Source: Alphaproteobacteria bacterium
Lineage (GTDB): Bacteria > Pseudomonadota > Alphaproteobacteria > JAQWUY01
Assembly: GCA_965276005.1 (NCBI GenBank)
Contig: OZ254962.1
Location: 2,676,991 to 2,740,990, forward strand
Reading direction: 5' to 3'
DNA length: 64,000 bases
Shown here: positions 1-40,638 of the stretch, piece by piece
Position numbering within the stretch: the stretch's first letter is position 1
Layout: each line of letters starts with the position of its first letter
The notes under the pieces: generated by a model
The model's input: the letters and a program-made list of their open reading frames with translations, nothing else
Told to the model about the DNA's origin: nothing
The model's database searches: none
Position numbers and translations under genes: made by a program

Positions 1-497
1 AGACTGTTGTCGACAACCAGAACCCCGCCGATGGGCAAATGGGCGATGGCGTGTTCTACATAAAATGTATACGATTGTTTGTCCGCATCGATAAAGATGA
101 AGTCGAACTGTTGCTGTTGCATTTGCTCCAGCATGGTTTGTGTGGCGTCCCCTTGTACGATGGTGATGGTATTGGTACAGGGGTGGGCGTCAAATGAATC
201 TTTGGCAAGTTCCACATAGCGGCCGTCCCACTCCAAGCAAGTAACCGCTGCCTGTGGTGCCCCTTCGCACATGCACAGGGTGGCATAGCCGAAAAACATA
301 CCCACTTCGAGAATGTTTTTTGGTTGCTTTAAGGCGGTCAAAGTGCGTAAAAACCCACCGGACAGGCGATTTGAACTCATGTCCGCTTGCGGTGAAAATG
401 CCTGCGACATTTTCAGCACATTTTGTAAAAATGGACTCTCAAAAAATGTGTGGTTGTGGCAATATGTGTCGATAAGTGGGTCTGTAATGTTTGTCAT
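1..497 (-). CDS. O-methyltransferase (Methyltransf_3 / caffeoyl-CoA OMT-like), 3' part runs off the window
   Basis: Manual translation from ATG at 497: MTNITDPLIDTY...KNILEVGMFFGYATLCM...FDFIFIDADKQSY...GGVLVVDNS. Has the SAM motif EVGxxxGY and the FIDADK motif. Absent from the ORF track because the stop is outside the window. Confidence 0.85.
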   Translation of the reverse strand, partial: MTNITDPLIDTYCHNHTFFESPFLQNVLKMSQAFSPQADMSSNRLSGGFLRTLTALKQPKNILEVGMFFGYATLCMCEGAPQAAVTCLEWDGRYVELAKDSFDAHPCTNTITIVQGDATQTMLEQMQQQQFDFIFIDADKQSYTFYVEHAIAHLPIGGVLVVDNS

Positions 498-511
498 GTC
501 GATGTGTATAT

Positions 512-678
512 TGTACTGGTTGATTTTTGTTTGTGGCTTGTTTTGTGAATCTAGGGGGCTTTGCCCCCCGTGCGTTTAATGTGGATTTTACCATGCTTTG
601 CATGACAAAATACCACACGCACTTCCCCCCGATCGAGCACCACATCGGGCTTACGCCCTCAGCGGTTGCAACCGCTTT
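512..678. repeat. REP/MITE-like multi-hairpin element, copy 1
   Basis: ~165 bp shared with 4402-4828 and (inverted) 10305-10472. Contains GGGGGC-TTT-GCCCCC, CATGC-TTT-GCATG, CCCGAT..ATCGGG, GGGC-TTAC-GCCC and the palindrome AGCGGTTGCAACCGCT. Confidence 0.9.
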
Positions 679-764
679 CAGTATACTATACACATATTTT
701 GTTGGTGTTTCAATGGGAATATGCTATAAATATGCCTGTGTGATATAATGTGAAGAGGTGATAC

Positions 765-1655
765 ATGTCGACAACCTATACTCCAGTACCCACCGCTGTG
801 TTTCCCGTTGCGGGTTTAGGCACACGGTTTTTGCCCGCCTCGAAAGTGGTGCCAAAGGAGCTGTTTCCCCTACTCGACAAACCGCTGATCGAATATGCGG
901 TGGAGGAGGCACTGGCGGCGGGGGCAACGGATTTTATTTTTGTCATCTCCCCTACCAAAACCAGTATTGTCAAGCATTTCGAAGACGATCCAAATTTGCT
1001 GTATATGTTGGCAGAAAAACAACAACAGTATATTATCGATAAGGTAAAATGTAAAATCCCCGGTGCCATACACACGGTGGTACAATCCCAAGCCTTAGGC
1101 TTGGGACATGCCATATACTGTGCCAAAGACTTGGTCGGCGATCGCCCGTTTCATGTGCTGTTGCCGGATGATGTGGTGTTGTCTGATGTGGCGTGTCAAA
1201 AGCAGCTGGCAGATGTGTTTGATAAAACTCGATCGGGGGTGGTTGCGGTGGAATATGTGGCGTGGGAATCTGTACACAAATACGGGGTACTGGAGTGCCG
1301 AGATACGGACGATAGTGTCATACCTGTTAAGGGCTTTGTCGAAAAACCCGCCCGGGTAGATGCCCCCAGTAATCTGTCGATAATCGGGCGGTATATTTTT
1401 ACACCGCAGATTTTTACCCACTTGCAACAGGGAAAAACGGGGGCAGGGGGCGAAATACAAATCACCGATGCTATGGCGGATATGTTGGGCGAGCAAGATT
1501 TTTACGGGGTAAAGTTTCAAGGGCAGCGGTTCGACTGTGGATCAAAAGCAGGATTGTTAGAAGCCCAAATTGCCGCCGCCAGCAAAGATGCGGACTTACA
1601 GCATACCTTACCCGATATATTGGCAAAATACAGCAGTGGAAGAGGACACAGATGA
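765..1655 (+). CDS. galU: UTP--glucose-1-phosphate uridylyltransferase
   Basis: AVFPVAGLGTRFLPASKVVPKE, VEKP, GAGGEIQITDA and FDCGSK motifs. Confidence 0.95.
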   Translation: MSTTYTPVPTAVFPVAGLGTRFLPASKVVPKELFPLLDKPLIEYAVEEALAAGATDFIFVISPTKTSIVKHFEDDPNLLYMLAEKQQQYIIDKVKCKIPGAIHTVVQSQALGLGHAIYCAKDLVGDRPFHVLLPDDVVLSDVACQKQLADVFDKTRSGVVAVEYVAWESVHKYGVLECRDTDDSVIPVKGFVEKPARVDAPSNLSIIGRYIFTPQIFTHLQQGKTGAGGEIQITDAMADMLGEQDFYGVKFQGQRFDCGSKAGLLEAQIAAASKDADLQHTLPDILAKYSSGRGHR

Positions 1656-2968
1656 AAATTGCAATGATTGGTACTGGATATGTGGGTTTGGTGACGGGCG
1701 TGTGTTTGTCGCACTTGGGGCATACGGTAGCTTGTATCGATGCGGATGTGGCAAAAATCGACAATATCAAACGGGGTGTTATACCTATTTATGAAACCGG
1801 TCTAAATCGTTTGTTGCACCAATGTGTACAACAAGGGCGGTTGTCTTTCACAAACGATTTACAACAGGGTATCAAAGGCTGTGCCGCTGTGTTTATTTGC
1901 GTAGGCACCCCGTCCCGATCCGATGGCAGTGCCGATGTATCGGCGGTGTTTGCGGTTGCCGAACGCATCGCTTGCATTGCCGATGATACTATTGTCGTGG
2001 TCGATAAATCCACCGTGCCAGTGGGTACCGCCGATAAAGTCCGCACCCTTATGCAGCAGACAAACCCAGATTTAAAATTTTCTGTGGTGTCGAACCCAGA
2101 ATTTTTACGAGAGGGGGTTGCCATCGAGGATTTTCTCAATCCCGACCGTATTGTCATCGGGGCGGATGATGCACTGGGCAGTACGGTTATGCAGGAAGTA
2201 TATGCCCCGTTTACCCATCGAGATGTACCGTTAATGATGACGGATACCAAATCAGCGGAAATGATAAAATATGCCACCAATGCGTTTTTGGCAACGAAAA
2301 TTACTTTTGCCAATGACTTAGCGGATCTGTGTGAAAAAGTCGGCAGCAACATCACCGATGTGACCAAAGGGTTTGGTATGGATACCCGTATTGGCTACAA
2401 GTTTTTACACCCGGGACCCGGCTATGGGGGCAGTTGTTTCCCCAAAGACACTCGAGCGTTGGTGCATACTTCCAATACACACGGGGTCGACATGGACATT
2501 ATCCGCACGGTGGTAAAAGTCAATGAACACCGCAAAGCCCGCATGGCGGATAAGATTTTACAGCTGATGGGCTCTGATAACAAAAAAGCCACCATATTAG
2601 GTTTGACCTTTAAATCGAACACAGACGATATACGGGAATCGCCGTCTTTAACCATCATCCCCAAATTGTTACAGGCGGGGGTACACATATCCGCATACGA
2701 TCCAGAAGGCATGCACAATGCCAAACAAAACCTAGCGGACATCGATTTTTGTAACAGTGTCGAAGACGCTTGTACAAACACAGATGCGATGGTTATTTTG
2801 ACAGAATGGAGTGCTTTTTCTGTGTTAGATTTTGCTACACTGGCACGGGTAGTGCGGACAAAAACCATTATCGATTTACGCAATTTATACGATTTGGAGC
2901 GTATGCAACAGATTCACAACACACACGGCTTTACATACCACAGTATAGGACGGCAGTCGATTGTGTAA
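1652..2968 (+). CDS. ugd: UDP-glucose/GDP-mannose family 6-dehydrogenase
   Basis: GTGYVG Rossmann motif, KSTVPVG, SNPEFLREG, GYGGSCFPKD catalytic Cys; ATGA overlap with galU. Confidence 0.95.
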   Translation: MKIAMIGTGYVGLVTGVCLSHLGHTVACIDADVAKIDNIKRGVIPIYETGLNRLLHQCVQQGRLSFTNDLQQGIKGCAAVFICVGTPSRSDGSADVSAVFAVAERIACIADDTIVVVDKSTVPVGTADKVRTLMQQTNPDLKFSVVSNPEFLREGVAIEDFLNPDRIVIGADDALGSTVMQEVYAPFTHRDVPLMMTDTKSAEMIKYATNAFLATKITFANDLADLCEKVGSNITDVTKGFGMDTRIGYKFLHPGPGYGGSCFPKDTRALVHTSNTHGVDMDIIRTVVKVNEHRKARMADKILQLMGSDNKKATILGLTFKSNTDDIRESPSLTIIPKLLQAGVHISAYDPEGMHNAKQNLADIDFCNSVEDACTNTDAMVILTEWSAFSVLDFATLARVVRTKTIIDLRNLYDLERMQQIHNTHGFTYHSIGRQSIV

Positions 2969-2995
2969 AAAATACAGAAAGGGCACACCCATACC

Positions 2996-4393
2996 ATGAC
3001 ACCACCCCATTCCCATAGCTTTAATCCCACTATTTTACGACAATACGATATTCGTGGTATTGTGGGCGATACTTTACACGGAGCGGATGCGTACGCTATT
3101 GGCCGTTCATTAGCCACCATTGCTAGCGAACGGCACACCTCCATACGGGCGGTGGTGGGCTATGATGGGCGGGTGTCATCGCCGACACTTGCCAAATATC
3201 TGATAGACGGCTTTACCGATGCCGGCGTGGCGGTGGTCGATGTGGGCTTGTGTCCTACCCCGCTGTTGTATATGGCAGGCAAAGAGTTAAACGCCCCTAT
3301 TGCCGTCATGATAACCGGCAGCCATAACCCGTCCGCATACAATGGCTTTAAAATTATGCTGCAGGGGGCATCGTTTTTTGGTGAAGATATTCAAAAACTG
3401 GGCGATATTGCCAAACGGGGCGATTGGGTATGCCTGCAAAACCCCGCCCCCCCTGTGTACGAACAACAGGATTTTTCTGCATTTTATGTACAACGCATTT
3501 TACAAGATTATAACCCTAAAGCCGTATATACGGTGGTGTGGGATACGGGCAATGGGGCGATGGGGGCGGTGTTACGCCAGCTGACCGACAAAATGGCGGG
3601 GACGCATATTATCATTAACGAAGCCGTAGACGGCACCTTTCCCAACCACCACCCTGACCCAACGGTGGAGAGCAACCTTGAGCAGCTCAAAACCGCTGTA
3701 CAGCGGCACAAGGCGGATATGGGCATTGCTTTTGACGGCGATGGCGATAGGGTGGGGATTGTCGATGCTATGGGGCGGGTGCTGTGGGGGGATGAAATTT
3801 TATGCGTGTTGGTCGAGCCCGTGCTTGCCAAATATCCTAAGGCAAAAATATTGTCTGATGTAAAAGCATCCGATGTGTTGTTCGAACACATTGCTCGTAT
3901 GGGAGGGGTACCGGTGATGGTGGCAACGGGGCATTCGATTGTAAAATCTCGTATGATCGAAGAACAATCGCCATTAGCGGGGGAAATGAGTGCCCATATA
4001 TTCTTTGCCGATGGTTTTTATGGACATGACGATGCCCTGTATGCGGGGGTGCGGTTTATCAATGCCATTTATGCAGGCGGTATGTCTGTGGCACAGGCAA
4101 AAGACGCCTTGCCGCAAATGGTCAATACTCCAGAAATCCGTATCGACATCGATGAGGACAAAAAATTCCCGCTGATTAGGCAACTGGCACAGCACATGCA
4201 GGACACAGGCACAGAGTACTGCGACATCGACGGCGTACGGGTACGCACAGAAAATGGTTGGTGGCTGTGCCGGGCATCGAACACGCAAAACTGTATCACC
4301 ATGCGGTTTGAGGCAAACACGCAGCAAAATTTACAGGCTATGATACAATCCGTGCAAGATATACTGGCACAGTATGGGGTGAGTCGTTGGTGA
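2996..4393 (+). CDS. Phosphomannomutase/phosphoglucomutase
   Basis: YDIRG, TGSHNP phosphoserine loop, FDGDGDR metal loop, GEMSAH. Confidence 0.95.
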   Translation: MTPPHSHSFNPTILRQYDIRGIVGDTLHGADAYAIGRSLATIASERHTSIRAVVGYDGRVSSPTLAKYLIDGFTDAGVAVVDVGLCPTPLLYMAGKELNAPIAVMITGSHNPSAYNGFKIMLQGASFFGEDIQKLGDIAKRGDWVCLQNPAPPVYEQQDFSAFYVQRILQDYNPKAVYTVVWDTGNGAMGAVLRQLTDKMAGTHIIINEAVDGTFPNHHPDPTVESNLEQLKTAVQRHKADMGIAFDGDGDRVGIVDAMGRVLWGDEILCVLVEPVLAKYPKAKILSDVKASDVLFEHIARMGGVPVMVATGHSIVKSRMIEEQSPLAGEMSAHIFFADGFYGHDDALYAGVRFINAIYAGGMSVAQAKDALPQMVNTPEIRIDIDEDKKFPLIRQLAQHMQDTGTEYCDIDGVRVRTENGWWLCRASNTQNCITMRFEANTQQNLQAMIQSVQDILAQYGVSRW

Positions 4394-14731: not shown

Positions 14732-15973
14732 TTATAGGTAGCCTTTTTCCTTTGCAGTTTTGATGTATTCTGCCTCTGCATCTTGTAACGCTTGTGCGGG
14801 GGTTTTTTGACCGGACAACACTTCGCCCGCCTGTTTGCCCATAATGCCGTGAATAATCCCACTGTGTGCGGGGTTCATAGGCTGTGAGGGTGCCCCGGCA
14901 TAAAAGCTGTCGATAACACCGACCGCATAGGGCGTAGGCTTATACGAAGACCGTAGCCAAGTGGCAATATCGTTGTTTTTGGCAACGGTTGTATCGGAAA
15001 TGCCCTGCATTAATGCTCGAAAAGCTATGTCATCATTGCCGGCACTGTTTTTTGGTAAGTACACCCCGTCCCACCAAGTGGTCGTTGCCGCATTGCCGCC
15101 CGCAACCGCTGCAGGTGCCGCCGCAAAGCCGATTTTACCGACAACTGTACTGGTTTGTCGGTCGTCCATAGATTTTGCCCGGGATCCCCACAGCATCGCC
15201 ATAGCAATTTTGCCCTGTGCCATTTGTTGCGTTACTGCCCCCGTATCGAGGACTAAGGCATTTGGCGACATGTATTGTTTTAATTTTACCATCAGGTTTA
15301 GGGCATCGATACCGGCTTGGCTGTTAAACGCAGGTTGATTGGTGCCCGGTTTAAAGAATGACCCGCCGAAACCCAAGAACAGGTTGTTAAATTCTTGGCT
15401 GATGTTCCAGCCGGATTTAAACGCCGCCCCAAACGGATATTCGATAGACGGTTCGGATTTTAGTTTTTCCGCCGCTGCCAGTACTTCGTCATATGTTTTT
15501 GGCACCGCTATACCGTGTTTTGCAAACAGGTCTTTGCGGTACATAAAGTGCTGGGCATTGGCTTGGAATGCCACCGCCCAGATTTTGCCGTCGATGCGGA
15601 TTAACATACCGTCTTCGATGTTGTATGTGGTTTTGTACCTTGCCACCAAATCGTCCAGCGGGCGTAACAAGCCTTTGGCGAGTAACGGCGACAGCGTACC
15701 ATTAGACCCCACCACCGCATCATAGGGCGAAGTGCTGGCGGCTAAGGCTTGTTCGGCATCCGCTTTGTTGTCTTTTGTTTGTTTCCATACCACTTTGAAG
15801 CTGTTATCTTGGCAAGATTCCACCTCTGCTCGAATTTTGTCTAACACGGGAAAGGCGTTCGATTGTACGCTGATTTCCCCGTTGAGCCCACAGCCCGCAT
15901 AGGCGACCGTCCCCAACATAACAGCAACCGTCATAGCGATTATTTTTTTAACATAGTCTTTTAACATAGTCAT
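14732..15973 (-). CDS. Extracellular solute-binding protein (SBP_bac_1-like), paralog 1
   Basis: Signal peptide (..VAYA), LRPLDDLV, FMYRKDLF, PKTYDEVL; located in an ABC operon. Confidence 0.88.
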   Translation of the reverse strand: MTMLKDYVKKIIAMTVAVMLGTVAYAGCGLNGEISVQSNAFPVLDKIRAEVESCQDNSFKVVWKQTKDNKADAEQALAASTSPYDAVVGSNGTLSPLLAKGLLRPLDDLVARYKTTYNIEDGMLIRIDGKIWAVAFQANAQHFMYRKDLFAKHGIAVPKTYDEVLAAAEKLKSEPSIEYPFGAAFKSGWNISQEFNNLFLGFGGSFFKPGTNQPAFNSQAGIDALNLMVKLKQYMSPNALVLDTGAVTQQMAQGKIAMAMLWGSRAKSMDDRQTSTVVGKIGFAAAPAAVAGGNAATTTWWDGVYLPKNSAGNDDIAFRALMQGISDTTVAKNNDIATWLRSSYKPTPYAVGVIDSFYAGAPSQPMNPAHSGIIHGIMGKQAGEVLSGQKTPAQALQDAEAEYIKTAKEKGYL

Positions 15974-16054
15974 AGTATTCTCCTCACTGTTGTTTTAAAG
16001 TGGGGCTTGTGCCCCGTGTCCATAGATCGGAGGGCAAAATCCCCCCCAATCCGA

Positions 16055-17287
16055 TTATAAAATGCCGTTTTCTTTGGCAACTTTGGTATATTCTTTGCTG
16101 GCATTTTGCAATACCTCTGTAGCGGTTTTTTGCCCCGTCAAGTACTCGCCAATAAATTTGCCAATAGCGTTGTGTAAATAAGTGTATGCCGGTGTCATGG
16201 GAAATGGTGGGGCATTGTTTTCTACCGTTTCCACGACCCCTTTTGCGTATTTGCCAATTTTGTAATTATCCCGCAGCCAAATTGCCGCATCGTTGTTTTG
16301 GGCAACGATGTTACGGGAATACAAATACATCATAGTTTTAAAAGTGTTCTCGACATCGCCGGGGGCGTTTTTAGGAAGGACAAAGCCGTCCCAAAATACG
16401 GTGGCGGCGGCGTTGGAATCTGGCGATACTTTTGGGGCACTGACCAGTGCTATTTTGCCGACCACCGCACTTACATCTTTGTCGTCGACTGCCGCTGCCC
16501 GATTGCCCCACAACAATGCCATACCCAGTTTGCCATTTCGTAACATTTGTTGCACCACACCAGAGTCGATAACCAGTGCATTTGGCGACATATATTGCTT
16601 TAATTTCGCCATCAATTCTAGGGCTTTTATGCCGTTTGCGTTGACGATAGAGGCTTCGAATGTCCCCGCTTTAAAGTAGGTGCCGCCAAAGGCTTGGTAC
16701 AGGTTATTAAATTCTTGGGCGGCGTTCCACCCTGATTTATAGGCGGCACCAAAGGGAAAGGCAATGGTGTCGTCCTCTTTTAAGATTGCCGCCGCCGCCA
16801 GTACATCATCATATGTTTGTGGCACTGGGATATTGTGCTTTGCAAATAAATCCTTGCGGTACATAAGGTGCTGGGCGTTGACCATAAAGCCGATAGCGTA
16901 AATTTTACCGTCTATTCGTACCAACATGTTGTCTTGAATGTCGTACGAGTGGCGGTATTTTGCCACCAAATCGTCCAGCGGGCGTAACAAGCCCCGGGAT
17001 TGTACGGTACTGATCGAGCTGTTGGCAACAAATGCCGCATCATAAGGACCAACTTTGCCGGCAAAAGCGGATACCTGTTCGGTTTTGTGTTGCGGTGTTT
17101 TTTTCCACTGGTAGGAAAACTCCCCATCTTTACATTTGTTTAGGGCATTGGTAAAAATGTCGAAGGTTGGAAAAGAATTGGATAATATACTCACCTTTCC
17201 CGACAATCCACAGCCTGCATACGCAGTCCCCATAGATATGAGCGTTACCAGCGTTGCCAAGCCTATATATTTACATATTCTTATCAT
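16055..17287 (-). CDS. Extracellular solute-binding protein (SBP_bac_1-like), paralog 2
   Basis: Colinear with paralog 1 (LRPLDDLV, LMYRKDLF, YMSPNAL). Confidence 0.88.
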   Translation of the reverse strand: MIRICKYIGLATLVTLISMGTAYAGCGLSGKVSILSNSFPTFDIFTNALNKCKDGEFSYQWKKTPQHKTEQVSAFAGKVGPYDAAFVANSSISTVQSRGLLRPLDDLVAKYRHSYDIQDNMLVRIDGKIYAIGFMVNAQHLMYRKDLFAKHNIPVPQTYDDVLAAAAILKEDDTIAFPFGAAYKSGWNAAQEFNNLYQAFGGTYFKAGTFEASIVNANGIKALELMAKLKQYMSPNALVIDSGVVQQMLRNGKLGMALLWGNRAAAVDDKDVSAVVGKIALVSAPKVSPDSNAAATVFWDGFVLPKNAPGDVENTFKTMMYLYSRNIVAQNNDAAIWLRDNYKIGKYAKGVVETVENNAPPFPMTPAYTYLHNAIGKFIGEYLTGQKTATEVLQNASKEYTKVAKENGIL

Positions 17288-30043: not shown

Positions 30044-31365
30044 GAACGGATACACCCATGCCCGCACCTGTGTTTGAACCTTTGACCGTTTTTACATATC
30101 AACGGGGTATGTTAAGCACCGGCGGTGTTGGTATCGCCGATGTGGCAGAGCAGTACGGTACTCCGTTGTTTGTGTATAATATGGATGATATTTTAAACCG
30201 CTACCACCGCTTTATGGAGGCTTTTAGGCGGGCAAAACAGAAATACAATTTTACCAATGCACACACGGTACACTTTGCGGTAAAAGCCAATTCGAATCAA
30301 GCGGTGTTGTCGGCACTTGGCAAGTGTGGATGCGGTATGGATGTGGTATCGGGGGGCGAATTAAAACGGGCGTTGGCTGCTGGAGTACCAGCGGATAAAA
30401 TTATTTTTTCTGGGGTGGCAAAATCCGATTGGGAGCTACAATACGCCCTGCAACAAGGGGTGTTACAAATCAATGTGGAATCATTGGCAGAGTTGCACCA
30501 ACTGCAAGCGGTTGCCGAAAATATCGATGTTGTCGCCCCTATAGGGCTGCGCATGAACCCCAATGTGGCGGGTGCCACCCACGCAAAAATCAGCACCGGC
30601 AAAAACACCGATAAATTTGGTATCGATGCAGATATTGTGCTGCAGGTATCGACAGACATTTTGTCGTTATCCCACATCGACTGTCAAAGTATCAGTGTGC
30701 ATATCGGATCACAGCTGATGTGTGCGGCACCGTTTGTGGCGTCTTATAAAAAACTGGCGGATGTTGCCACAAGGTTAATAGCACAAGGCTTGCCGTTAAA
30801 ACGACTGGATTTAGGCGGCGGCTTGGGCGTGTGCTATGCCCCCAATGGCGACACCCCACCGGACATTATCGAGTATGCACAAATGGTTATACAAACGGTC
30901 GCACATGTGGGGCTAGACATCCATTTTGAGCCGGGACGATGGCTGGTGGGCAATGCGGGGGCTTTAATTGGTACGGTGGAAAATATCAAAGTAAACGATG
31001 CCAAGACTTTTGTATTAACCGACATTGCCATGAACGATTTTATCCGCCCCACCCTATACGAAGCCTATCACCATGTGGTACCCGTACAACACTCCGCAAC
31101 CACCATGATCGCCGATGTGGTCGGTCCCGTATGCGAAAGTGGCGATTATATGGCAAAAAACCGTGAAATCGGTACCGTAAAACGGGGCGATTATATCGCT
31201 GTGCTATCCACAGGGGCGTATGGCATGGTACTGGCATCGAACTACAACACCCGCCCCACCCCCGCCGAAGTGGCAATATATAAAGGCAAAGCCCACATCA
31301 TCCGCCGCCGCCAAACCATCACAGACATAATACACATGGACACCGTCCCCGATATTTTTGTGTAG
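30040..31365 (+). CDS. lysA: Diaminopimelate decarboxylase
   Basis: FAVKANSN PLP lysine, SGGE, HIGSQ, EPGR, GPVCESGD, GAYG. Confidence 0.96.
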   Translation: MRTDTPMPAPVFEPLTVFTYQRGMLSTGGVGIADVAEQYGTPLFVYNMDDILNRYHRFMEAFRRAKQKYNFTNAHTVHFAVKANSNQAVLSALGKCGCGMDVVSGGELKRALAAGVPADKIIFSGVAKSDWELQYALQQGVLQINVESLAELHQLQAVAENIDVVAPIGLRMNPNVAGATHAKISTGKNTDKFGIDADIVLQVSTDILSLSHIDCQSISVHIGSQLMCAAPFVASYKKLADVATRLIAQGLPLKRLDLGGGLGVCYAPNGDTPPDIIEYAQMVIQTVAHVGLDIHFEPGRWLVGNAGALIGTVENIKVNDAKTFVLTDIAMNDFIRPTLYEAYHHVVPVQHSATTMIADVVGPVCESGDYMAKNREIGTVKRGDYIAVLSTGAYGMVLASNYNTRPTPAEVAIYKGKAHIIRRRQTITDIIHMDTVPDIFV

Positions 31366-31405
31366 GGTGTCATATGCGGACATAATGCCATATAGATGTA
31401 AACCG

Positions 31406-32674
31406 ATGCAAATAAACAATCGCACTATATTTAACAAGGACAACTTGGATATATTACAGGGTATAGATTCGGATACCATAGACCTTATATACCTTGACCC
31501 CCCGTTTAATAAGAAAAAACAGTTTATCGCCTCGATAGGCAGTAGTGCGGAGGGGGCGTCTTTTAATGACTTGTATCAATTACAAGATATTAAAGACGCA
31601 TGGGGTATATCCATAGAACAGGACACCCCGAAAGTACATGACTTTTTAATCGGCATAAAGAAAATAGACGGTAAACAATCGTATAACTATTGTTATATAG
31701 CCTATATGGCTATTCGTTTGATAGAGTGCCACCGCATATTAAAAAACACAGGCAGTTTGTATTTACATTGCGATCCGACAATGAGCCACTATTTAAAAAT
31801 ACTCTTAGACTGTATATTCGGGGATAACAATTTTATAAATGAAATTGTGTGGTGTTACCAAACGGGCGGTGCTGGGAAGCGATCATTTGCCAGAAAACAC
31901 GATATACTATTGTTTTACGGCAAATCAGAAAATTATGTTTTTCATGCGGACGCCGTACACATACCCCGTACCGATAAAGCTTTACAAAGGGCAAAAAATC
32001 CCAAAGGGGCAAGAATAAACTACACAGACACTACGAAAACAGCCAATGATTTTTTTGTCGATATACAGGCGTTAAACCCTATGGCAAAGGAACGCACAGG
32101 CTACCCGACCCAAAAGCCTTTACACCTCTTACGGCGGATTATCACAGCGTCCAGCAATGAGGGCGATATTGTCCTAGATCCATTTTGTGGCTGTGCGACC
32201 ACTTGTATTGCAGCGGAACAACTAAACCGTAAATGGATTGGTATCGACATATCTGTAAAAGCATATGACCTTGTGTGCGAGCGATTGGCAAAAGAAGTAT
32301 CAGACACCGGCGATATATTAAAATACAAAAATAAAGTGTATTTTCAAACGACCGTCCCCGCCCGTACAGATATGGGGGCGGATACCCCAGTACAAAAATG
32401 CGTATACATTATATCCAACCCAGCCTATCCAAACGATTACAAAGTAGGGGTTGCCAAGAATGTACATGCCCGATTAAACAGCTACCAAACCAGCGACCCC
32501 GATAGGGGCTACACATTGGAATACAGCCTATTAACCCCCTATTTTACCGAACTAGAAAAATATATACACGACATTTTACCCAATAAATATGAATGGATAC
32601 AGAATACAGATTTAGCAACCATAAAACAAAAAATAGACGATTTTATAGCTAGTAAAACACGGAGGCGTATGTGA
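31406..32674 (+). CDS. Beta-class amino-DNA methyltransferase fused to a T5orf172/GIY-YIG-like domain, copy 1
   Basis: YLDPPF (motif IV), variable segment, YPTQKP, LDPFCGCATT (motif I), then VYIISN..YKVG..ARL..ELEKYIH..YEWI. Confidence 0.88.
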   Translation: MQINNRTIFNKDNLDILQGIDSDTIDLIYLDPPFNKKKQFIASIGSSAEGASFNDLYQLQDIKDAWGISIEQDTPKVHDFLIGIKKIDGKQSYNYCYIAYMAIRLIECHRILKNTGSLYLHCDPTMSHYLKILLDCIFGDNNFINEIVWCYQTGGAGKRSFARKHDILLFYGKSENYVFHADAVHIPRTDKALQRAKNPKGARINYTDTTKTANDFFVDIQALNPMAKERTGYPTQKPLHLLRRIITASSNEGDIVLDPFCGCATTCIAAEQLNRKWIGIDISVKAYDLVCERLAKEVSDTGDILKYKNKVYFQTTVPARTDMGADTPVQKCVYIISNPAYPNDYKVGVAKNVHARLNSYQTSDPDRGYTLEYSLLTPYFTELEKYIHDILPNKYEWIQNTDLATIKQKIDDFIASKTRRRM

Positions 32675-32723
32675 TTAAGCCCCATGTGCAACGGATGCAT
32701 ACGCCATAAGGGACAATACGCTA

Positions 32724-32752
32724 TTGTATTTGTAGAGATAATGTACTACACT
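32724..32752 (+). promoter_or_regulatory. Putative sigma70 promoter of MTase copy 2
   Basis: TTGTAT-N17-TACACT within the duplicated 110-bp spacer. Confidence 0.5.
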
Positions 32753-32784
32753 ATGCTTTTATAACGCCATATGGATGTAACCCC

Positions 32785-34179
32785 ATGCAAATAAATAATC
32801 GCACTATATTTAACAAAGACAACTTGGATATATTACAAGGTATAGATTCGGATACTATAGACCTTATATACCTTGACCCCCCGTTTAACAAGAAAAAACA
32901 GTTTATCGCCCCGATGGGTAGTAGTGCGGAGGGGGCGTCTTTTAACGATTTGTATCGATTGCAAGATATTAAAGACGAATGGGTTATATCCATAGAACAG
33001 GACACTCCGAAATTACACGATTTTTTAATTGGCATAAAGAAAATAGATGGCAAGCAATCGTATAACTATTGTTATATAGCCTATATGGCTATTCGTTTGA
33101 TAGAATGCCACCGCATATTAAAACCAACGGGCAGCTTATATCTGCATTGTGACCCGACAATGAGCCACTATCTGAAAATACTCTTGGACTGTATATTTTG
33201 GGATAAAAACTTTGTAAATGAGATCGTGTGGCATTACAGAACATATCAAGGCAAGGTTTCAACATATTACCCTAAAAAACACGATATTATCTTTTGGTAT
33301 ACAAAAGATTCAAAATTATTTGAAAACAGACAAGTATTTAAACTTGCATATATGGATAATTATGAATATACAGTTGATTTTATGAGATGGAAAAAATTTT
33401 TTGCTATAGGAGATAATAAAATCAAATATGGAAATCATCCAGAAAGAGATAGTCGTTTTACCCAATACCTAGATAGGTGGATACATGATAAGGGAAGAAA
33501 ACCAACGATAGGGGAGATTGTTTATGAGTGTAAGGGATATGTTGTGGATGATGTGTGGGTAGATATTCAGGCAATAGATCCGAAAGACTCAAAAGAAAAA
33601 ACGGGCTACCCGACCCAAAAGCCCTTAGAGTTATTGCGGCGGATTATCACAGCGTCCAGCAATGAAGGTGATATTGTCCTAGATCCATTTTGTGGCTGTG
33701 CGACCACTTGTATTGCAGCGGAACAACTAAACCGTAAATGGATTGGTATCGACATATCTGTAAAAGCATATGACCTTGTGCGCGAGCGATTGGCAAAAGA
33801 AGTATCAGACACCGGCGATATATTAAAATACAAAAATAAAGTGTATTTTCAAACGACCGTCCCCGCCCGTACAGATATGGGGGCGGATACCCCAGTACAA
33901 AAATCCGTATACATTATATCCAACCCATCCTATCCAAACGATTACAAAGTAGGGGTTGCCAAGAATGTACATGCCCGATTAAACAGCTACCAAACCAGCG
34001 ACCCCGATAGGGGCTACAAACTGGAATACAGCGTATTAACCCCCTATTTTACCGAACTAGAAAAATATATACACGACATTTTACCCAATAAATATGAATG
34101 GATACAGAATACAGATTTAGCAACCATAAAACAAAAAATGGACGATTTTATAGCTAGTAAAACACGGAGGCGTATGTGA
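32785..34179 (+). CDS. Beta-class amino-DNA methyltransferase fused to a T5orf172/GIY-YIG-like domain, copy 2
   Basis: Same motifs as copy 1; unrelated AT-rich central segment of ~405 bp. Confidence 0.88.
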   Translation: MQINNRTIFNKDNLDILQGIDSDTIDLIYLDPPFNKKKQFIAPMGSSAEGASFNDLYRLQDIKDEWVISIEQDTPKLHDFLIGIKKIDGKQSYNYCYIAYMAIRLIECHRILKPTGSLYLHCDPTMSHYLKILLDCIFWDKNFVNEIVWHYRTYQGKVSTYYPKKHDIIFWYTKDSKLFENRQVFKLAYMDNYEYTVDFMRWKKFFAIGDNKIKYGNHPERDSRFTQYLDRWIHDKGRKPTIGEIVYECKGYVVDDVWVDIQAIDPKDSKEKTGYPTQKPLELLRRIITASSNEGDIVLDPFCGCATTCIAAEQLNRKWIGIDISVKAYDLVRERLAKEVSDTGDILKYKNKVYFQTTVPARTDMGADTPVQKSVYIISNPSYPNDYKVGVAKNVHARLNSYQTSDPDRGYKLEYSVLTPYFTELEKYIHDILPNKYEWIQNTDLATIKQKMDDFIASKTRRRM

Positions 34180-34228
34180 TTAAGCCCCATGTGCAACGGA
34201 TGCATACGCCATAAGGGACAATACGCTA

Positions 34229-34257
34229 TTGTATTCGTAAAGATAATGTACTACACT
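34229..34257 (+). promoter_or_regulatory. Putative sigma70 promoter of MTase copy 3
   Basis: TTGTAT-N17-TACACT, with both hexamers conserved between the two spacer copies. Confidence 0.5.
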
Positions 34258-34289
34258 ATGCTTTTATAACGCCATATGGATGTAACCCC

Positions 34290-35666
34290 ATGCAAATAAA
34301 TAATCGCACTATATTTAACAAAGACAACTTGGATATATTACAAGGTATAGATTCGGATACTATAGACCTTATATACCTTGACCCCCCGTTTAACAAGAAA
34401 AAACAGTTTATCGCCCCGATGGGTAGTAGTGCGGAGGGGGCGTCTTTTAACGATTTGTATCGATTGCAAGATATTAAAGACGAATGGGTTATATCCATAG
34501 AACAGGACACTCCGAAATTACATGACTTTTTAATTGGCATAAAGAAAATAGATGGCAAGCAATCGTATAACTATTGTTATATAGCCTATATGGCTATTCG
34601 TTTGATAGAATGTCACCGTATATTAAAACCAACGGGTAGCTTATATCTGCATTGTGACCCGACAATGAGTCATTACTTAAAAATCGCTCTTGATTGTATA
34701 TTCGGGGATAAGAATTTCATAAACGAGATTGCTTGGTGTTATAAAAAATTGCCGAATAACGCAAAAATGTTTCAGAGAAATAAAGATATTATTTTATTTT
34801 ATGCGAAATCTGAAAACTATATTTTTCATAAACAATATTCTCATCCTACTAAACAATCTTTAAAAACTTTTGAGACTGGGCGTAGGATAGGATATAATGC
34901 CAATCACTCTAAGAAAATGGTGACTGTTTTTGATTGGGATAAATATCAACAAGCAATAAAAAATAATAAAATCCCCAAAGATTTAAAACCTATAGAATTT
35001 AAAGATGGCAAACCTCTGATGCGAGATTATTGGGATGATATAAAAATACTTGGTGGAAGTAAGAACAAAGAACGCACAGGCTACCCGACCCAAAAGCCCT
35101 TAGAGTTATTGCGGCGGATTATCGCAGCGTCCAGCAATGAGGGCGATATTGTCCTAGATCCATTTTGTGGCTGTGCGACTACTTGTATTGCAGCGGAACA
35201 ACTAAATCGTAAATGGATTGGTATCGACATATCTGTAAAAGCATATGACCTTGTGCGCGAGCGATTGGCAAAAGAAGTATCAGACACCGGCGATATATTA
35301 AAATACAAAAATAAAGTGTATTTTCAAACGACCGTCCCCGCCCGTACAGATATGGGGGCGGATACCCCAATACAAAAATGCGTATACATTATATCCAACC
35401 CATCCTATCCAAACGATTACAAAGTAGGGGTTGCCAAGAATGTACATGCCCGGTTAAACAGCTATCAAACCAGCGACCCCGATAGGGGCTACAAACTAGA
35501 ATACAGTGTCTTAACCCCCTATTTTACCGAATTAGAAAAACACATACACGATATTTTACCCAACAAATACGAATGGATACAGAATACTGATTTAGCAACC
35601 ATAAAACAAAAAATAGACGATTTTATAGCCAATAAAACACGAGATTTATTTAGCCAAGCCCTGTGA
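34290..35666 (+). CDS. Beta-class amino-DNA methyltransferase fused to a T5orf172/GIY-YIG-like domain, copy 3
   Basis: Same motifs; a third distinct central segment of ~375 bp; altered last residues (NKTRDLFSQAL). Confidence 0.88.
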   Translation: MQINNRTIFNKDNLDILQGIDSDTIDLIYLDPPFNKKKQFIAPMGSSAEGASFNDLYRLQDIKDEWVISIEQDTPKLHDFLIGIKKIDGKQSYNYCYIAYMAIRLIECHRILKPTGSLYLHCDPTMSHYLKIALDCIFGDKNFINEIAWCYKKLPNNAKMFQRNKDIILFYAKSENYIFHKQYSHPTKQSLKTFETGRRIGYNANHSKKMVTVFDWDKYQQAIKNNKIPKDLKPIEFKDGKPLMRDYWDDIKILGGSKNKERTGYPTQKPLELLRRIIAASSNEGDIVLDPFCGCATTCIAAEQLNRKWIGIDISVKAYDLVRERLAKEVSDTGDILKYKNKVYFQTTVPARTDMGADTPIQKCVYIISNPSYPNDYKVGVAKNVHARLNSYQTSDPDRGYKLEYSVLTPYFTELEKHIHDILPNKYEWIQNTDLATIKQKIDDFIANKTRDLFSQAL

Positions 35667-35825
35667 TGTTCTCCAATACTCGCAAGCAAAGATATTGTTA
35701 TCTCCAGTGTCTTAAACCACAGCAAAAAGGAAATACAGGGTATTACAGCTATATATAATCGCAACGATCATTTAAATGCAATATTAGAATCACCTACATT
35801 ATGTATTAAATCTTGTTTAGGATAG
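35667..35825 (+). pseudogene. Remnant of a tyrosine-recombinase (integrase) C-terminus
   Basis: In the frame following the copy-3 stop: LASKDIVISSVLNHSKKEIQGITAIYNRNDHL, resembling the ..vLnH....gv.avYnr.dy catalytic His/Tyr region; no start codon. Confidence 0.55.
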
Positions 35826-36012
35826 TAAACGCTGCGAGTCATAATAGATCACAAACAAACATTTAGCATGCGAAAAATACCGTAAAGCCATATGGATTTT
35901 ACGGTGTATGGTAACCACTCCTTGACGCATGGCATTTGTGGGGTTTTTAGGGTGGTCTGCCCCGATTTCGTATTTCTCGTATTATAGGTACCTCCCGATA
36001 AAAACCGCAAAC

Positions 36013-36271
36013 AAAAAAGAGCCTCCTTGCGGAGGCTCTGAGTTTTGGAAGTATTTAAGTAGTCATATCTAATATTCATGTAGATACATAAACATTACAT
36101 ATAGCATTGGGAAAGAATCATAATATATTCAATCTCAAACACTTGTGATTGTAATATACCAAAATTTTTTATCTAATGGGTGTAAATTTCGCAAGTTTAT
36201 ACATTTTTTTACACATATACTATAATTTTGGTATTTCACGCTGATAAAAAATTCGATAATACCATTAACGA
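36013..36271 (-). ncRNA. Candidate sRNA unit A of a triplicated non-coding repeat
   Basis: Minus-strand terminator AGAGCCTCC-GCAA-GGAGGCTCT plus a U-run; ~60-nt core nearly invariant among the three copies. Confidence 0.5.
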
Positions 36272-36487
36272 AGTGTCTTTTTGTTGTGTGTAGTATCGCT
36301 GGTTTTTGGCGAAAACGGAAAAAATCTGCCCCTGTGGCGTTTTGTAATACTATATGTGGGTGCTATATTTGCTTGTTTTTACCCGTTTTTTGTATGCGTT
36401 GCTTGCCTGTGCTGCCGACGGTATATTTTTTGGTATATATTATACGCATACGGTTTATAAAAATACAACATTCGATAAAAATTGTAG

Positions 36488-36748
36488 AAAAAAAGAAGCC
36501 CCCTTGCGAAGGCTTTAAGTTTTGGAAGTATCTAAGTAATCATATCTAATATTCATGTGTATACATAAATATTACATACTACATTAGGAAAGAATATGTA
36601 TATACGCAATCCCAACGGCTTACAGTTGCAATATAGTAAATTTTTTTTACCCAATGGGTGTAAATTTCGCAAGTGTGTACATTTTTTACATGTACACTCT
36701 GTTTTAGTATTTCACGCTGATAAAAAATTCAAGAATACCATTCACGAA
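36488..36748 (-). ncRNA. Candidate sRNA unit B
   Basis: Terminator AAGCCTTC-GCAA-GGGGGCTT, whose two substitutions pair as G-U only on the minus strand. Confidence 0.5.
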
Positions 36749-36940
36749 GTATTTTCTTGTGTGAAATATTGCTGATTTTTCGTGAGTCGCCCCTGTGGCA
36801 CTTTGCAATGCTGTATATTGGTGTTGTATTTGCCCGTTTTTTGTATGCGTCATTTGCCCATACTGCTGATGGCATATTTTTTGGTGTGCCGTGTGTATAT
36901 ATACGGTTTATAAAAATGCAACACTCGGAGAAAATTGCAG

Positions 36941-37203
36941 AAAAAAAGAAGCCTCCTTGCGGAGGCTTGAAGTTTGGAAGTATCTAAGTAGTCATATCTA
37001 ATATTCATGTGTATACATAAACATTACATACTACATTAGGAAAGAAGATGTATGTATTCAATCCTAACGGCTTGCGGTTGTAATATACTAAATTTTTTTA
37101 TGTAATTGATGTAAACTTCGTAAGTGTATACATTTTTTACATGTATATTTTATGTTAGTATTTCACGCTGTTAAAAAAATTTGAAAATACCGTTCACGAA
37201 GTG
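36941..37203 (-). ncRNA. Candidate sRNA unit C
   Basis: Terminator AAGCCTCC-GCAA-GGAGGCTT plus a U7 run; same conserved core. Confidence 0.5.
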
Positions 37204-37392
37204 GATTTTCGGCTATTTTTGTTCACACTTCGTGAATGACATACGATTTTTTTGAAAAAAACATGTAGTGATATTGTATTATATTGTTAAAGTGCGAACA
37301 GAAATGTAAGTGTGATAACAGCAATATCTCATTGTTTTTTTGGATATGGCTTTTTTATTTGTGTTCTATTTCAGGGCGGAAACACACATTCT

Positions 37393-37434
37393 GTTTATCC
37401 CAATTCCCCTGCCGTTTACCCCAATTCCCCCGCC
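37393..37434. repeat. 21-bp tandem duplication of the lysS 3' end
   Basis: GTTTATCCCAATTCCCCTGCC / GTTTACCCCAATTCCCCCGCC. Confidence 0.8.
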
Positions 37435-39224: not shown

Positions 39225-40445
39225 TCATAAATAATCAATGGGAATGGCGGTCACTGTTTTGGTTATGGGACGATGGGTGTTTGCAAAACATAGTACGGCA
39301 CCTGATTTTATGTCTTTGCCAAATTTATTTAGTACCCGAAAGTGTTTTATATCATCCGTAGTTGGGTTACTCCTTTTCTTGATTTCTGTGGGGTATAACG
39401 CATTGTTTTGTTCTAATATGATGTCTATTTCCTTTTTGTCTTTATCCCGATAAAAAGATATATTGGGCTGCTTGCCATTGTGCCAGTATCCTTTGATAAT
39501 TTCGGATATGACAAAAGTTTCTAAGAATGCACCGTTCATTGCCCCTGTTTCCAAAACTTGTGGGGTTTTCCAGCCTGTTAAGTACGCCGCTAATCCCGTG
39601 TCCATAAAATAAATTTTTGGGGTTTTGATAACACGGGTTGTCATGTTATTCGAATAGGGGTATAACAAATAAATAATGCCCGAAATCTGCAATATGGACA
39701 CCCATGATTTTATAGTCGGTTGTGATACGCCGATATCCTTTGCCAAGTCCGCATAGTTTAACAACTGGGCTGTTCGTGCCGCTAGTGCTTGCATAAATTT
39801 TAGGAAATCCATCTCATTTGAAACATGGGTTAGGTTTTTGATGTCTTTCTCGATATAGGTCTGTACATACGATTCAAAAAATATGTCCCAATATGTATCA
39901 TCTGCGGTGTATAGCTTGGGGTATGCTCCTTGCCATATGCTGTGGAAAGTCTGTGTTATATTGCTCTGTTTTATATGGGGGGTTTGGTGTTGCAAAAAAT
40001 CTGTGCTTGGCAAAAAGGGCATAGTTGTTACGATGTGGTGTTTTTCTTGTTGTGATAAGCCTTGCAAGCGTAATATACCCACCCGACCTGCAAGGCTCTC
40101 AGATACATTTTGCATTAAATTAAACTGTTGCGACCCGGTAATCCAGAACATACCAGATGTATTTTTAGTATCCACAATGTCTTTGATATATGGAAACAAT
40201 TCGGGGGCATATTGAATTTCGTCAATCAACACCGGTGCAGGAAATCGTTGTAAAAACAGGGCGGGATCTTTTTGTGCCAGCTCCCTATTTTCCAATATGT
40301 CTAAGGATACATACAAACGGTTTTCCATATCCGTATTTTTTAACACTGTGGTTTTGCCCACCTGTCGGGGACCTGTAATCAACACCACCGGAAAAAAAGC
40401 ACTGGCATGTAGGATAGCTGTTTTAATGGTTCGTTGTATATACAT
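39225..40445 (-). CDS. AAA_14-type ATPase with DUF4143-like C-terminal domain
   Basis: GPRQVGKTT, IDEIQY, TGSQ, SESLAGR, PKIYFMDTGL, EIDIILE..PTEIK. Confidence 0.85.
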   Translation of the reverse strand: MYIQRTIKTAILHASAFFPVVLITGPRQVGKTTVLKNTDMENRLYVSLDILENRELAQKDPALFLQRFPAPVLIDEIQYAPELFPYIKDIVDTKNTSGMFWITGSQQFNLMQNVSESLAGRVGILRLQGLSQQEKHHIVTTMPFLPSTDFLQHQTPHIKQSNITQTFHSIWQGAYPKLYTADDTYWDIFFESYVQTYIEKDIKNLTHVSNEMDFLKFMQALAARTAQLLNYADLAKDIGVSQPTIKSWVSILQISGIIYLLYPYSNNMTTRVIKTPKIYFMDTGLAAYLTGWKTPQVLETGAMNGAFLETFVISEIIKGYWHNGKQPNISFYRDKDKKEIDIILEQNNALYPTEIKKRSNPTTDDIKHFRVLNKFGKDIKSGAVLCFANTHRPITKTVTAIPIDYL

Positions 40446-40638
40446 TTTTTCGTCCAATATAAAATATTATTTTAGATTAGCCGATTTTTTTTCATGTGTC
40501 AATATATAAAATGTTATTGTCACAAAAAACTGTACACTACACATAATTATATTGTGCTAGGGGAGGCTTTGGTGTATATTTTTTGTGTGATAGCATAGCG
40601 ATGGTGCTTGGGCATGAGACACTTAAAGGAGAAATTCA

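Follow-up and report, generated by a model that had tools for sequence, protein, structure and literature searches.

Three sibling genes of a candidate small regulatory RNA family beside a DNA methylase array in a marine alphaproteobacterial genome

The window analysed here is a 64,000-nucleotide stretch of an alphaproteobacterial genome (contig OZ254962.1, positions 2,676,991 to 2,740,990). It contains three tandem N6/N4 DNA methylase-T5orf172 (GIY-YIG-like) fusion genes (31358-35666, plus strand; proteins 76-78% identical), which form a low-GC insert (~38% versus 46.6% for the window) between lysA and an array of candidate small-RNA genes. The array lies in a 1.75-kb gap from the stop codon of methylase 3 (35666, plus strand) to that of lysS (37416, minus strand), where an ORF listing of both strands gave no credible open reading frame. 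The G+C content of the RNA array is 32%, and the methylases and RNAs share one low-GC segment at 31.4-37.4 kb.

Three head-to-tail units extend across 36005-37215. The repeat search returned direct-repeat families in three copies across 36001-37212 at start-to-start spacings of 476-477 and 451-453 bp, and MAFFT and nhmmer (E = 5e-87 to 4e-92 for the window units) placed the units approximately at 37215 to 36936 (unit C), 36765 to 36483 (unit B), and 36290 to 36005 (unit A) on the minus strand, bearing out the original prediction of three tandem minus-strand units. Tandem Repeats Finder misses the three units because the copies differ by indels. The units had been described as ~460 bp in length; three units do recur, but the full ~460-bp period is common to units A and B only, and unit C, the first on the minus strand, lacks the ~190-bp spacer and begins with the control region only. 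The spacers, one from the C terminator to the control region of B (36751-36940, minus strand) and the other from the B terminator to the control region of A (36275-36487, minus strand), are homologous, being ~190 bp long and 77% identical with 10-12-nt indels; the former contains no conserved frame and has no family match. The RNA parts of the three units are 79-91% identical, and the triplication is therefore not recent.

On the minus strand, each unit is composed of a control region (~120 nt), a TATATT box, hairpin 1, hairpin 2, a single-stranded stretch, a GC-rich stem with a GCAA loop, and a U-run, corresponding to a predicted RNA of ~140 nt, or up to ~165 nt with the upstream candidate promoter. 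sRNA gene C (36941-37081; fold z = -5.4; 158 bits with covariance model R1) is the copy nearest the orthologues and consists of hairpin 1 (37069-37034), hairpin 2 (37031-36994), the conserved single-stranded stretch (36993-36969), and the terminator stem (36968-36949) followed by the U-run. The corresponding parts of gene B (36488-36629; z = -3.2; 158 bits) are located at 36617-36582, 36579-36542, 36541-36516, and 36515-36496, the terminator stem containing two U-G pairs. Gene A (36013-36152; z = -6.4; 149 bits) has diverged the most and shows 79-84% identity to B and C, with hairpin 2 at 36103-36064, the conserved stretch, in which UUAAAU replaces UUAGAU, at 36063-36040, and the terminator stem at 36039-36018. 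Each window RNA folds much better than its shuffles (z = -3.2 to -6.4). The terminator scan found five terminator-like sites in the region against 1.3 expected, including the three GCAA-loop stems with U-runs, one per unit, that the original prediction had placed on the minus strand.

The earlier argument for the functional strand also holds, as the two U-G pairs of the unit B terminator (GCCUUC/GGGGGC) would be C-A mismatches on the plus strand. Hairpin 1 is GUURGG/CCYAAU, and hairpin 2 comprises 16 bp formed by UAUGUAAUGUUUAUGU, a loop, and ACAUGAAUAUUAGAUAUG. The second stem of the original prediction varies as described, with TTAGGA/TCCTAA in unit C, TTGGGA/TCCTAA with one G-U pair in unit B, and TTGAGA/TCCCAA with one A-C mismatch in unit A; counting the outer pair, unit A has two mismatches rather than the one stated. 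With its hairpin 1 weakened by two mismatches, unit A may be decaying.

So far, the family comprises five copies in three genomes. The class I LysRS encoded by lysS is 84, 82, and 78% identical to its counterparts in the nearest assembled genomes; the next matches (~60%) come from Alphaproteobacteria of the Curvivirga, Kiloniellales, and Rhodospirillales kind, and each of the relatives examined has a different segment downstream of lysS. One copy lies in a 2.58-Mb genome (L002; LysRS 82% identical) at 16670-16837 (nhmmer E = 1.8e-25); it shares the strand of lysS, is located 5 kb downstream of that gene, and is flanked by an EamA gene and alanine dehydrogenase. The blastn homology of unit C to this locus spans 36973 to 37254. 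The other copy is found at 1973-1824 in OZ246977.1 (L004; 'MAG: Alphaproteobacteria bacterium', 2.63 Mb, LysRS 84% identical), just downstream of pyruvate carboxylase and with Band-7 as the other neighbour, the control region of the RNA beginning 86 nt from the stop codon of pyruvate carboxylase. Among 185,579 species genomes, L004 was the sole locus matching a 23-nt seed pattern, with exactly one match in its genome; a first 33-mer pattern, which was too strict, gave no match in the genome collection. More than one copy is known only in the window genome. In each of the three genomes, the RNA and the gene that follows it are convergent; in L002, the RNA and the gene before it are divergent.

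Searches with nhmmer and covariance model R1 gave no further copies downstream of lysS in L001, L003, and L005-L007 or downstream of pyruvate carboxylase in L008-L010. Neither the plasmid and phage collections (blastn, distant mode) nor the viral contigs (seed pattern) nor the metagenome contigs (two pattern scans) contained a match. As far as could be searched, the family is limited to a narrow clade of marine Alphaproteobacteria, which is probably host-associated. In L002, a very AT-rich stretch of ~550 bp with no called gene (15970-16520) lies upstream of the single-copy RNA, and no repeat of the unit was detected in it.

All five copies fold independently into one layout of three hairpins and a single-stranded stretch. 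In the model-guided alignment of the five copies, standard pairs occupy 92% of the pair cells, compared with 40-58% after a shift of the partners by 1-3 columns. In helix 2, pairing is complete (100%) in every copy even though 9 of its 16 pairs vary. Almost all of these changes are in the 3' arm, mostly from U-A to U-G or from G-U to G-C, so that most of them are one-sided wobble changes and not full compensatory swaps. Five pairs of the terminator have changed on both sides, and the terminators of L002 and L004 have almost no sequence in common with those of the window copies while the stem and the U-run are kept. The structure is thus retained among the homologues in L002 and L004 through pair-preserving changes. 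The pairing is also strand-specific: helix 2 is 100% paired in the minus-strand RNA versus 81% on the opposite strand, because many of its pairs are G-U, and the minimum free energy is better on the RNA strand by 7.5-14.6 kcal/mol in each of the five copies. With five sequences from three genomes, this amounts to good support, not statistical proof, for what appears to be a conserved, strand-specific structured RNA gene family triplicated in the window genome.

The almost invariant core of the original prediction was confirmed. Its 34-nt pattern occurs exactly three times against 0.00 expected from shuffles, and the core is kept in all five copies. The conserved stretch UUAGAUAUGAYUACUUARAUACUUCCAAA, in which the five copies differ only at the Y and R positions, is mostly unpaired in the folds, with GAYUACUUARAUACUUCCAAA as the single-stranded part of ~25 nt. 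Apart from one change in unit B, the five copies have a single sequence, UAAUGUUUAUGU, in the 5' arm of hairpin 2, whereas the 3' arm drifts. We also observed that the core (36969-37009 in unit C, with equivalents in A, B, L002, and L004) contains UUAGAUA twice, 11 nt apart, the first at the base of hairpin 2 and the second in the single-stranded part.

Conservation extends upstream of the RNA. In the upstream alignment, four blocks are kept at fixed distances in all five copies, namely ACTTCGTGAAyrGTATT, yATGTAAAAA (always ~55 nt before TATATT), TTrCGrAA (~35 nt before TATATT), and the TATATT box. The control region of unit C (37082-37236, minus strand) contains the TATATT box (37087-37082), a CGAAG motif ~35 nt and ATGTAAAAA ~55 nt upstream of it, box 1 ACTTCGTGAACGGTATT (37202-37186), and an inverted TTCACGAAG (37236-37228). 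The control region of unit B (36630-36750, minus strand) has TATATT at 36635-36630 and box 1 ACTTCGTGAATGGTATT at 36750-36734, and that of unit A (36153-36274, minus strand) has TATATT at 36158-36153 and box 1 with one change, ACTTCGTTAATGGTATT, at 36274-36258. The inverted TTCACGAAG further upstream is shared by unit C and L002, and a motif search of the window and L001-L004 found TTCACGAAG/CTTCGTGAA only upstream of the family RNAs.

The TATATT box noted in the original prediction is present in all three window units, directly preceding the ~140-nt RNA part. When the preceding base is included, unit B reads CTATAT, which is the -10 consensus of Alphaproteobacteria (PMC8844928), and the remaining four copies read GTATAT. 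No acceptable -35 box was found 17 nt before TATATT, and an alternative candidate promoter, TTGCGA-17 nt-TAAAAA, would start the RNA ~20-25 nt earlier. Because the two candidate promoters lie ~25 nt apart, the 5' end is uncertain by ~25 nt. The predicted promoter might be activator-dependent or might use an alternative sigma factor, and ACTTCGTGAAyrGTATT in the control region could mark the regulon of a transcription factor.

We compared the RNAs with known families. The whole window gave no match at the gathering thresholds of Rfam 15, including AbcR/alpha-r15, alpha-r14, CcsR, and C4/P4 CI RNA, and the E-value mode returned only sub-threshold, terminator-driven matches at chance level (Phe_leader, suhB/MmgR, isrD, and others). 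The only recurrent weak match, found with all five copies, was RF00519 suhB/MmgR (alpha-r8), with 19.1-20.3 bits for the window copies, 18.8 for L004, and 11.2 for L002 against a gathering score of 41. This alignment rests essentially on the terminator; the UUUCCUCCCU stretch of the model falls opposite gaps or mismatches, and in cmscan the C-rich single-stranded motif (consensus GUUUcCUCCCU) has gaps opposite CUCCCU, the local sequence being AUACUUCCAAA. MmgR/SuhB RNA is likewise alphaproteobacterial and has a hairpin, a conserved single-stranded stretch, and then a terminator. We rejected membership in RF00519, as the scores are far under 41 bits and the C-rich motif is absent. Judged from their sequences, the array RNAs belong to no described family, and neither Rfam nor the literature searched contained a regulatory RNA for this clade.

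AbcR1 and AbcR2 (alpha-r15) of the Rhizobiales resemble the array as tandem homologous sRNAs in an alphaproteobacterial host. They are two homologous sRNAs of ~115-120 nt placed in tandem in one intergenic region, with their own promoters and differential regulation (LsrB/VtlR, RpoH1), and they bind Hfq and carry single-stranded anti-Shine-Dalgarno motifs inside an ultraconserved stretch (PMC8844928). These motifs might be a parallel to the action proposed below for CUUCC. The array RNAs have no sequence or Rfam relationship with AbcR1/AbcR2, however, and there are three copies instead of two; CUUCC, within a stretch rich in A and U, takes the place of CUCCUCCC or UUCCCCUC, and no LysR-type regulator gene was seen adjoining the array. 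Tandem paralogous sRNA genes with their own regulated promoters and terminators, conserved seeds, and a drifting remainder are also represented by OmrA/OmrB of E. coli, PrrF1/PrrF2 of Pseudomonas, and LhrC1-4 of Listeria. The likeness to these consists in tandem sibling sRNA genes with a conserved seed, the sequences and hosts being unrelated. OmrA/B have been named as siblings (PMC13473878).

We consider it likely that the array comprises three sibling genes of a new family of trans-acting base-pairing sRNAs on the minus strand, each with its own predicted promoter region and terminator. This reading agrees with the small-RNA array of the original prediction, which the homologues in two genomes support by keeping the structure, terminator, core, and TATATT. 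Several generic features of base-pairing sRNAs are seen, namely a stand-alone gene, a Rho-independent terminator with a U-tail in all five copies, a conserved single-stranded seed, and a structure retained through pair-preserving changes. Hfq-dependent base-pairing sRNAs have the layout seen here, in which a structured 5' portion is followed by a long, invariant and unpaired stretch and then by a terminator hairpin with a U-tail, and the family is probably of the Hfq type.

Each RNA might be transcribed independently from its own activator-dependent promoter, there being no good -35 box, and could pair with its targets in trans by means of the invariant single-stranded stretch. The CUUCC in this stretch could cover GGAAG, or GGAGG with one wobble, at a ribosome-binding site, and translational repression at such sites would for this reason be the most likely action. 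The terminator hairpin and U-tail could serve as the Hfq-binding module. As with other sibling sRNAs, the three diverged copies might raise the dosage or differ slightly in the targets or signals for which they are specific. A duplex scan of the seed against the translation-start region of every ORF in the window and in ten loci (~200 kb) gave nothing above shuffled seeds, the best duplex reaching -19.3 kcal/mol against -16 to -24 for the shuffled seeds.

The main alternative to mRNA pairing is a protein-binding role, in which the RNAs are real and bind or sponge a protein or another RNA, with the UUAGAUA copies and the 5' arm of hairpin 2 as the sites. The near-invariance of UAAUGUUUAUGU opposite a 3' arm that changes freely suggests sequence-specific recognition in addition to pairing, two copies of UUAGAUA fall within the invariant 30 nt, and the ~200 kb searched gave no mRNA target. 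That search covered ~200 kb only, however, and a single-stranded invariant stretch directly before the terminator is the usual layout of a seed and an Hfq module. The known protein sponges (CsrB/RsmZ, 6S) have many repeated motifs or a very different architecture and are built differently from these RNAs. We regard a binding or sponging role as unlikely.

The array could also be a DNA-level repeat conserved without a stable RNA, for example a duplication of terminator and regulatory DNA, or the remnants of a mobile element on the margin of the low-GC island. Its G+C content (32% against 46.6% in the window) and its position next to the tandem methylase array and a possible integrase remnant would fit this, and so would the outcome of the run searches, which found no RNA runs. 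The ten runs with window or L004 copies are long-contig assemblies, all DNA: X1-X4 (window) and X7-X10 (L004) were assembled from DNA, and X5 is a marine metagenome that covers a close strain at low depth. The runs holding the window sequence derive from one sample labelled as another organism and from a marine metagenome. A repeat at the DNA level would not account for the G-U and U-G pairs that hold the stems on one strand only, or for terminators whose sequence has been replaced with the structure kept in both orthologues. Both orthologues sit between core genes, the plasmid and phage collections contain no match, and the seed pattern is absent from the viral contigs. This explanation appears improbable to us.

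Two further readings relate the RNAs to the methylases. In the first, which we consider improbable, the RNAs and the methylase-GIY-YIG array would both be cargo of a low-GC island gained by horizontal transfer, and the extra RNA copies would have been recruited there to regulate functions of the island or of defence, or to reprogramme mRNAs of the host; if true, the RNAs would be regulatory RNAs amplified on an island and not plain chromosomal siblings. A direct coupling, one RNA for each methylase-GIY-YIG gene as an antisense regulator, antitoxin, or guide, had been raised in the original prediction because of the equal copy number, three and three, and the adjacency and common low-GC segment (31.4-37.4 kb) point in the same direction. 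Tblastn with the three methylases found no homologue in the L002 and L004 loci, so that the suggested co-occurrence of the two arrays in other genomes is absent there, and both orthologous RNAs are single-copy. The seed has no near-perfect complement in the methylase genes or elsewhere in the window, and the orientation of the RNAs is convergent with the methylase array, without overlap. On this comparative evidence the coupling seems already largely refuted and very improbable. As the homologues are single-copy with no methylase nearby, the equal numbers are best read as coincidence or shared island history, or as independent tandem amplification of both arrays within a single low-GC segment prone to recombination.

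A decayed protein-coding repeat, considered in the original prediction, does not describe the units, since no reading frame is conserved on either strand among the window units, L002, and L004. We rejected the sense frame through the core (MNIRYDYL...), which differs in phase from copy to copy and in L004 lacks a start codon. On the antisense strand, the frame that closes with WKYLSSHI-stop is only a reverse reading of the invariant seed, with the preceding residues coming from different frames. Hydrophobic plus-strand ORFs of 59-87 aa occur in the two spacers; we rejected them as genes because the frames of A and B differ through the 10-12-nt indels and unit C lacks them. None of the coding candidates has a Pfam or NCBIfam match, and the homology shared with the L002 and L004 loci ends outside the spacers.

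The array resembles the LDR and Sib/Ibs loci of E. coli in being tandem repeats of a few hundred base pairs with small RNA genes and terminators, and it differs from them in having no conserved toxin ORF or antisense partner and in having orthologues that are single stand-alone RNA genes, so the likeness noted in the original prediction is architectural only. A type I toxin-antitoxin system of this kind, with a hydrophobic spacer peptide on the plus strand and the minus-strand RNA as antitoxin, is suggested by the tandem repetition and the hydrophobic ORFs in both spacers, but seems hardly credible and already refuted by the comparative data, as these ORFs are inconsistent in frame, absent from unit C, and without family match, the homology to both orthologous loci stops short of the spacers, the 86 nt before the control region in L004 leave no room for a partner gene, and the WKYLSSHI-stop frame is the seed backwards with its upstream part out of frame among the copies.

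The sibling sRNA genes add a well-supported candidate family to a clade of uncultured marine Alphaproteobacteria known from assembled genomes only. Their anatomy is unusually clear, with control motifs, seed, and terminator, and the natural comparison of one versus three copies among close relatives provides a convenient case for the origin and divergence of sibling sRNAs. This is a new candidate regulatory-RNA family of a familiar kind, which changes no general principle.

Several features of the surrounding locus were observed. Directly behind methylase 3, a frame at 35667-35825 (plus strand) reads ...VLNHSKKEIQGITAIYNRNDHL...; its interpretation as a C-terminal remnant of a P4-type integrase was rejected for want of Pfam, NCBIfam, or phage tblastn support. 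At 37393-37434, a 21-bp unit, GTTTAYCCCAATTCCCCYGCC, is tandemly and exactly duplicated across the lysS stop codon (37416-37418, minus strand), so that the last codons and the stop are repeated just downstream. A DUF4143/AAA_14 ATPase gene (39225-40457, minus strand) lies in a low-GC stretch (37-40%) between lysS and pntA. Because pntA directly adjoins lysS in the relatives L001 and L002, this gene looks like a second small insertion at the lysS locus. L001, a relative with the common pntAB-lysS neighbourhood, carries at 1-4270 a different N6/N4 methylase and a ResIII/RE_endonuc restriction gene, ~6 kb to the other side of lysS; in this clade, restriction-modification genes seem to be drawn to the region around lysS.
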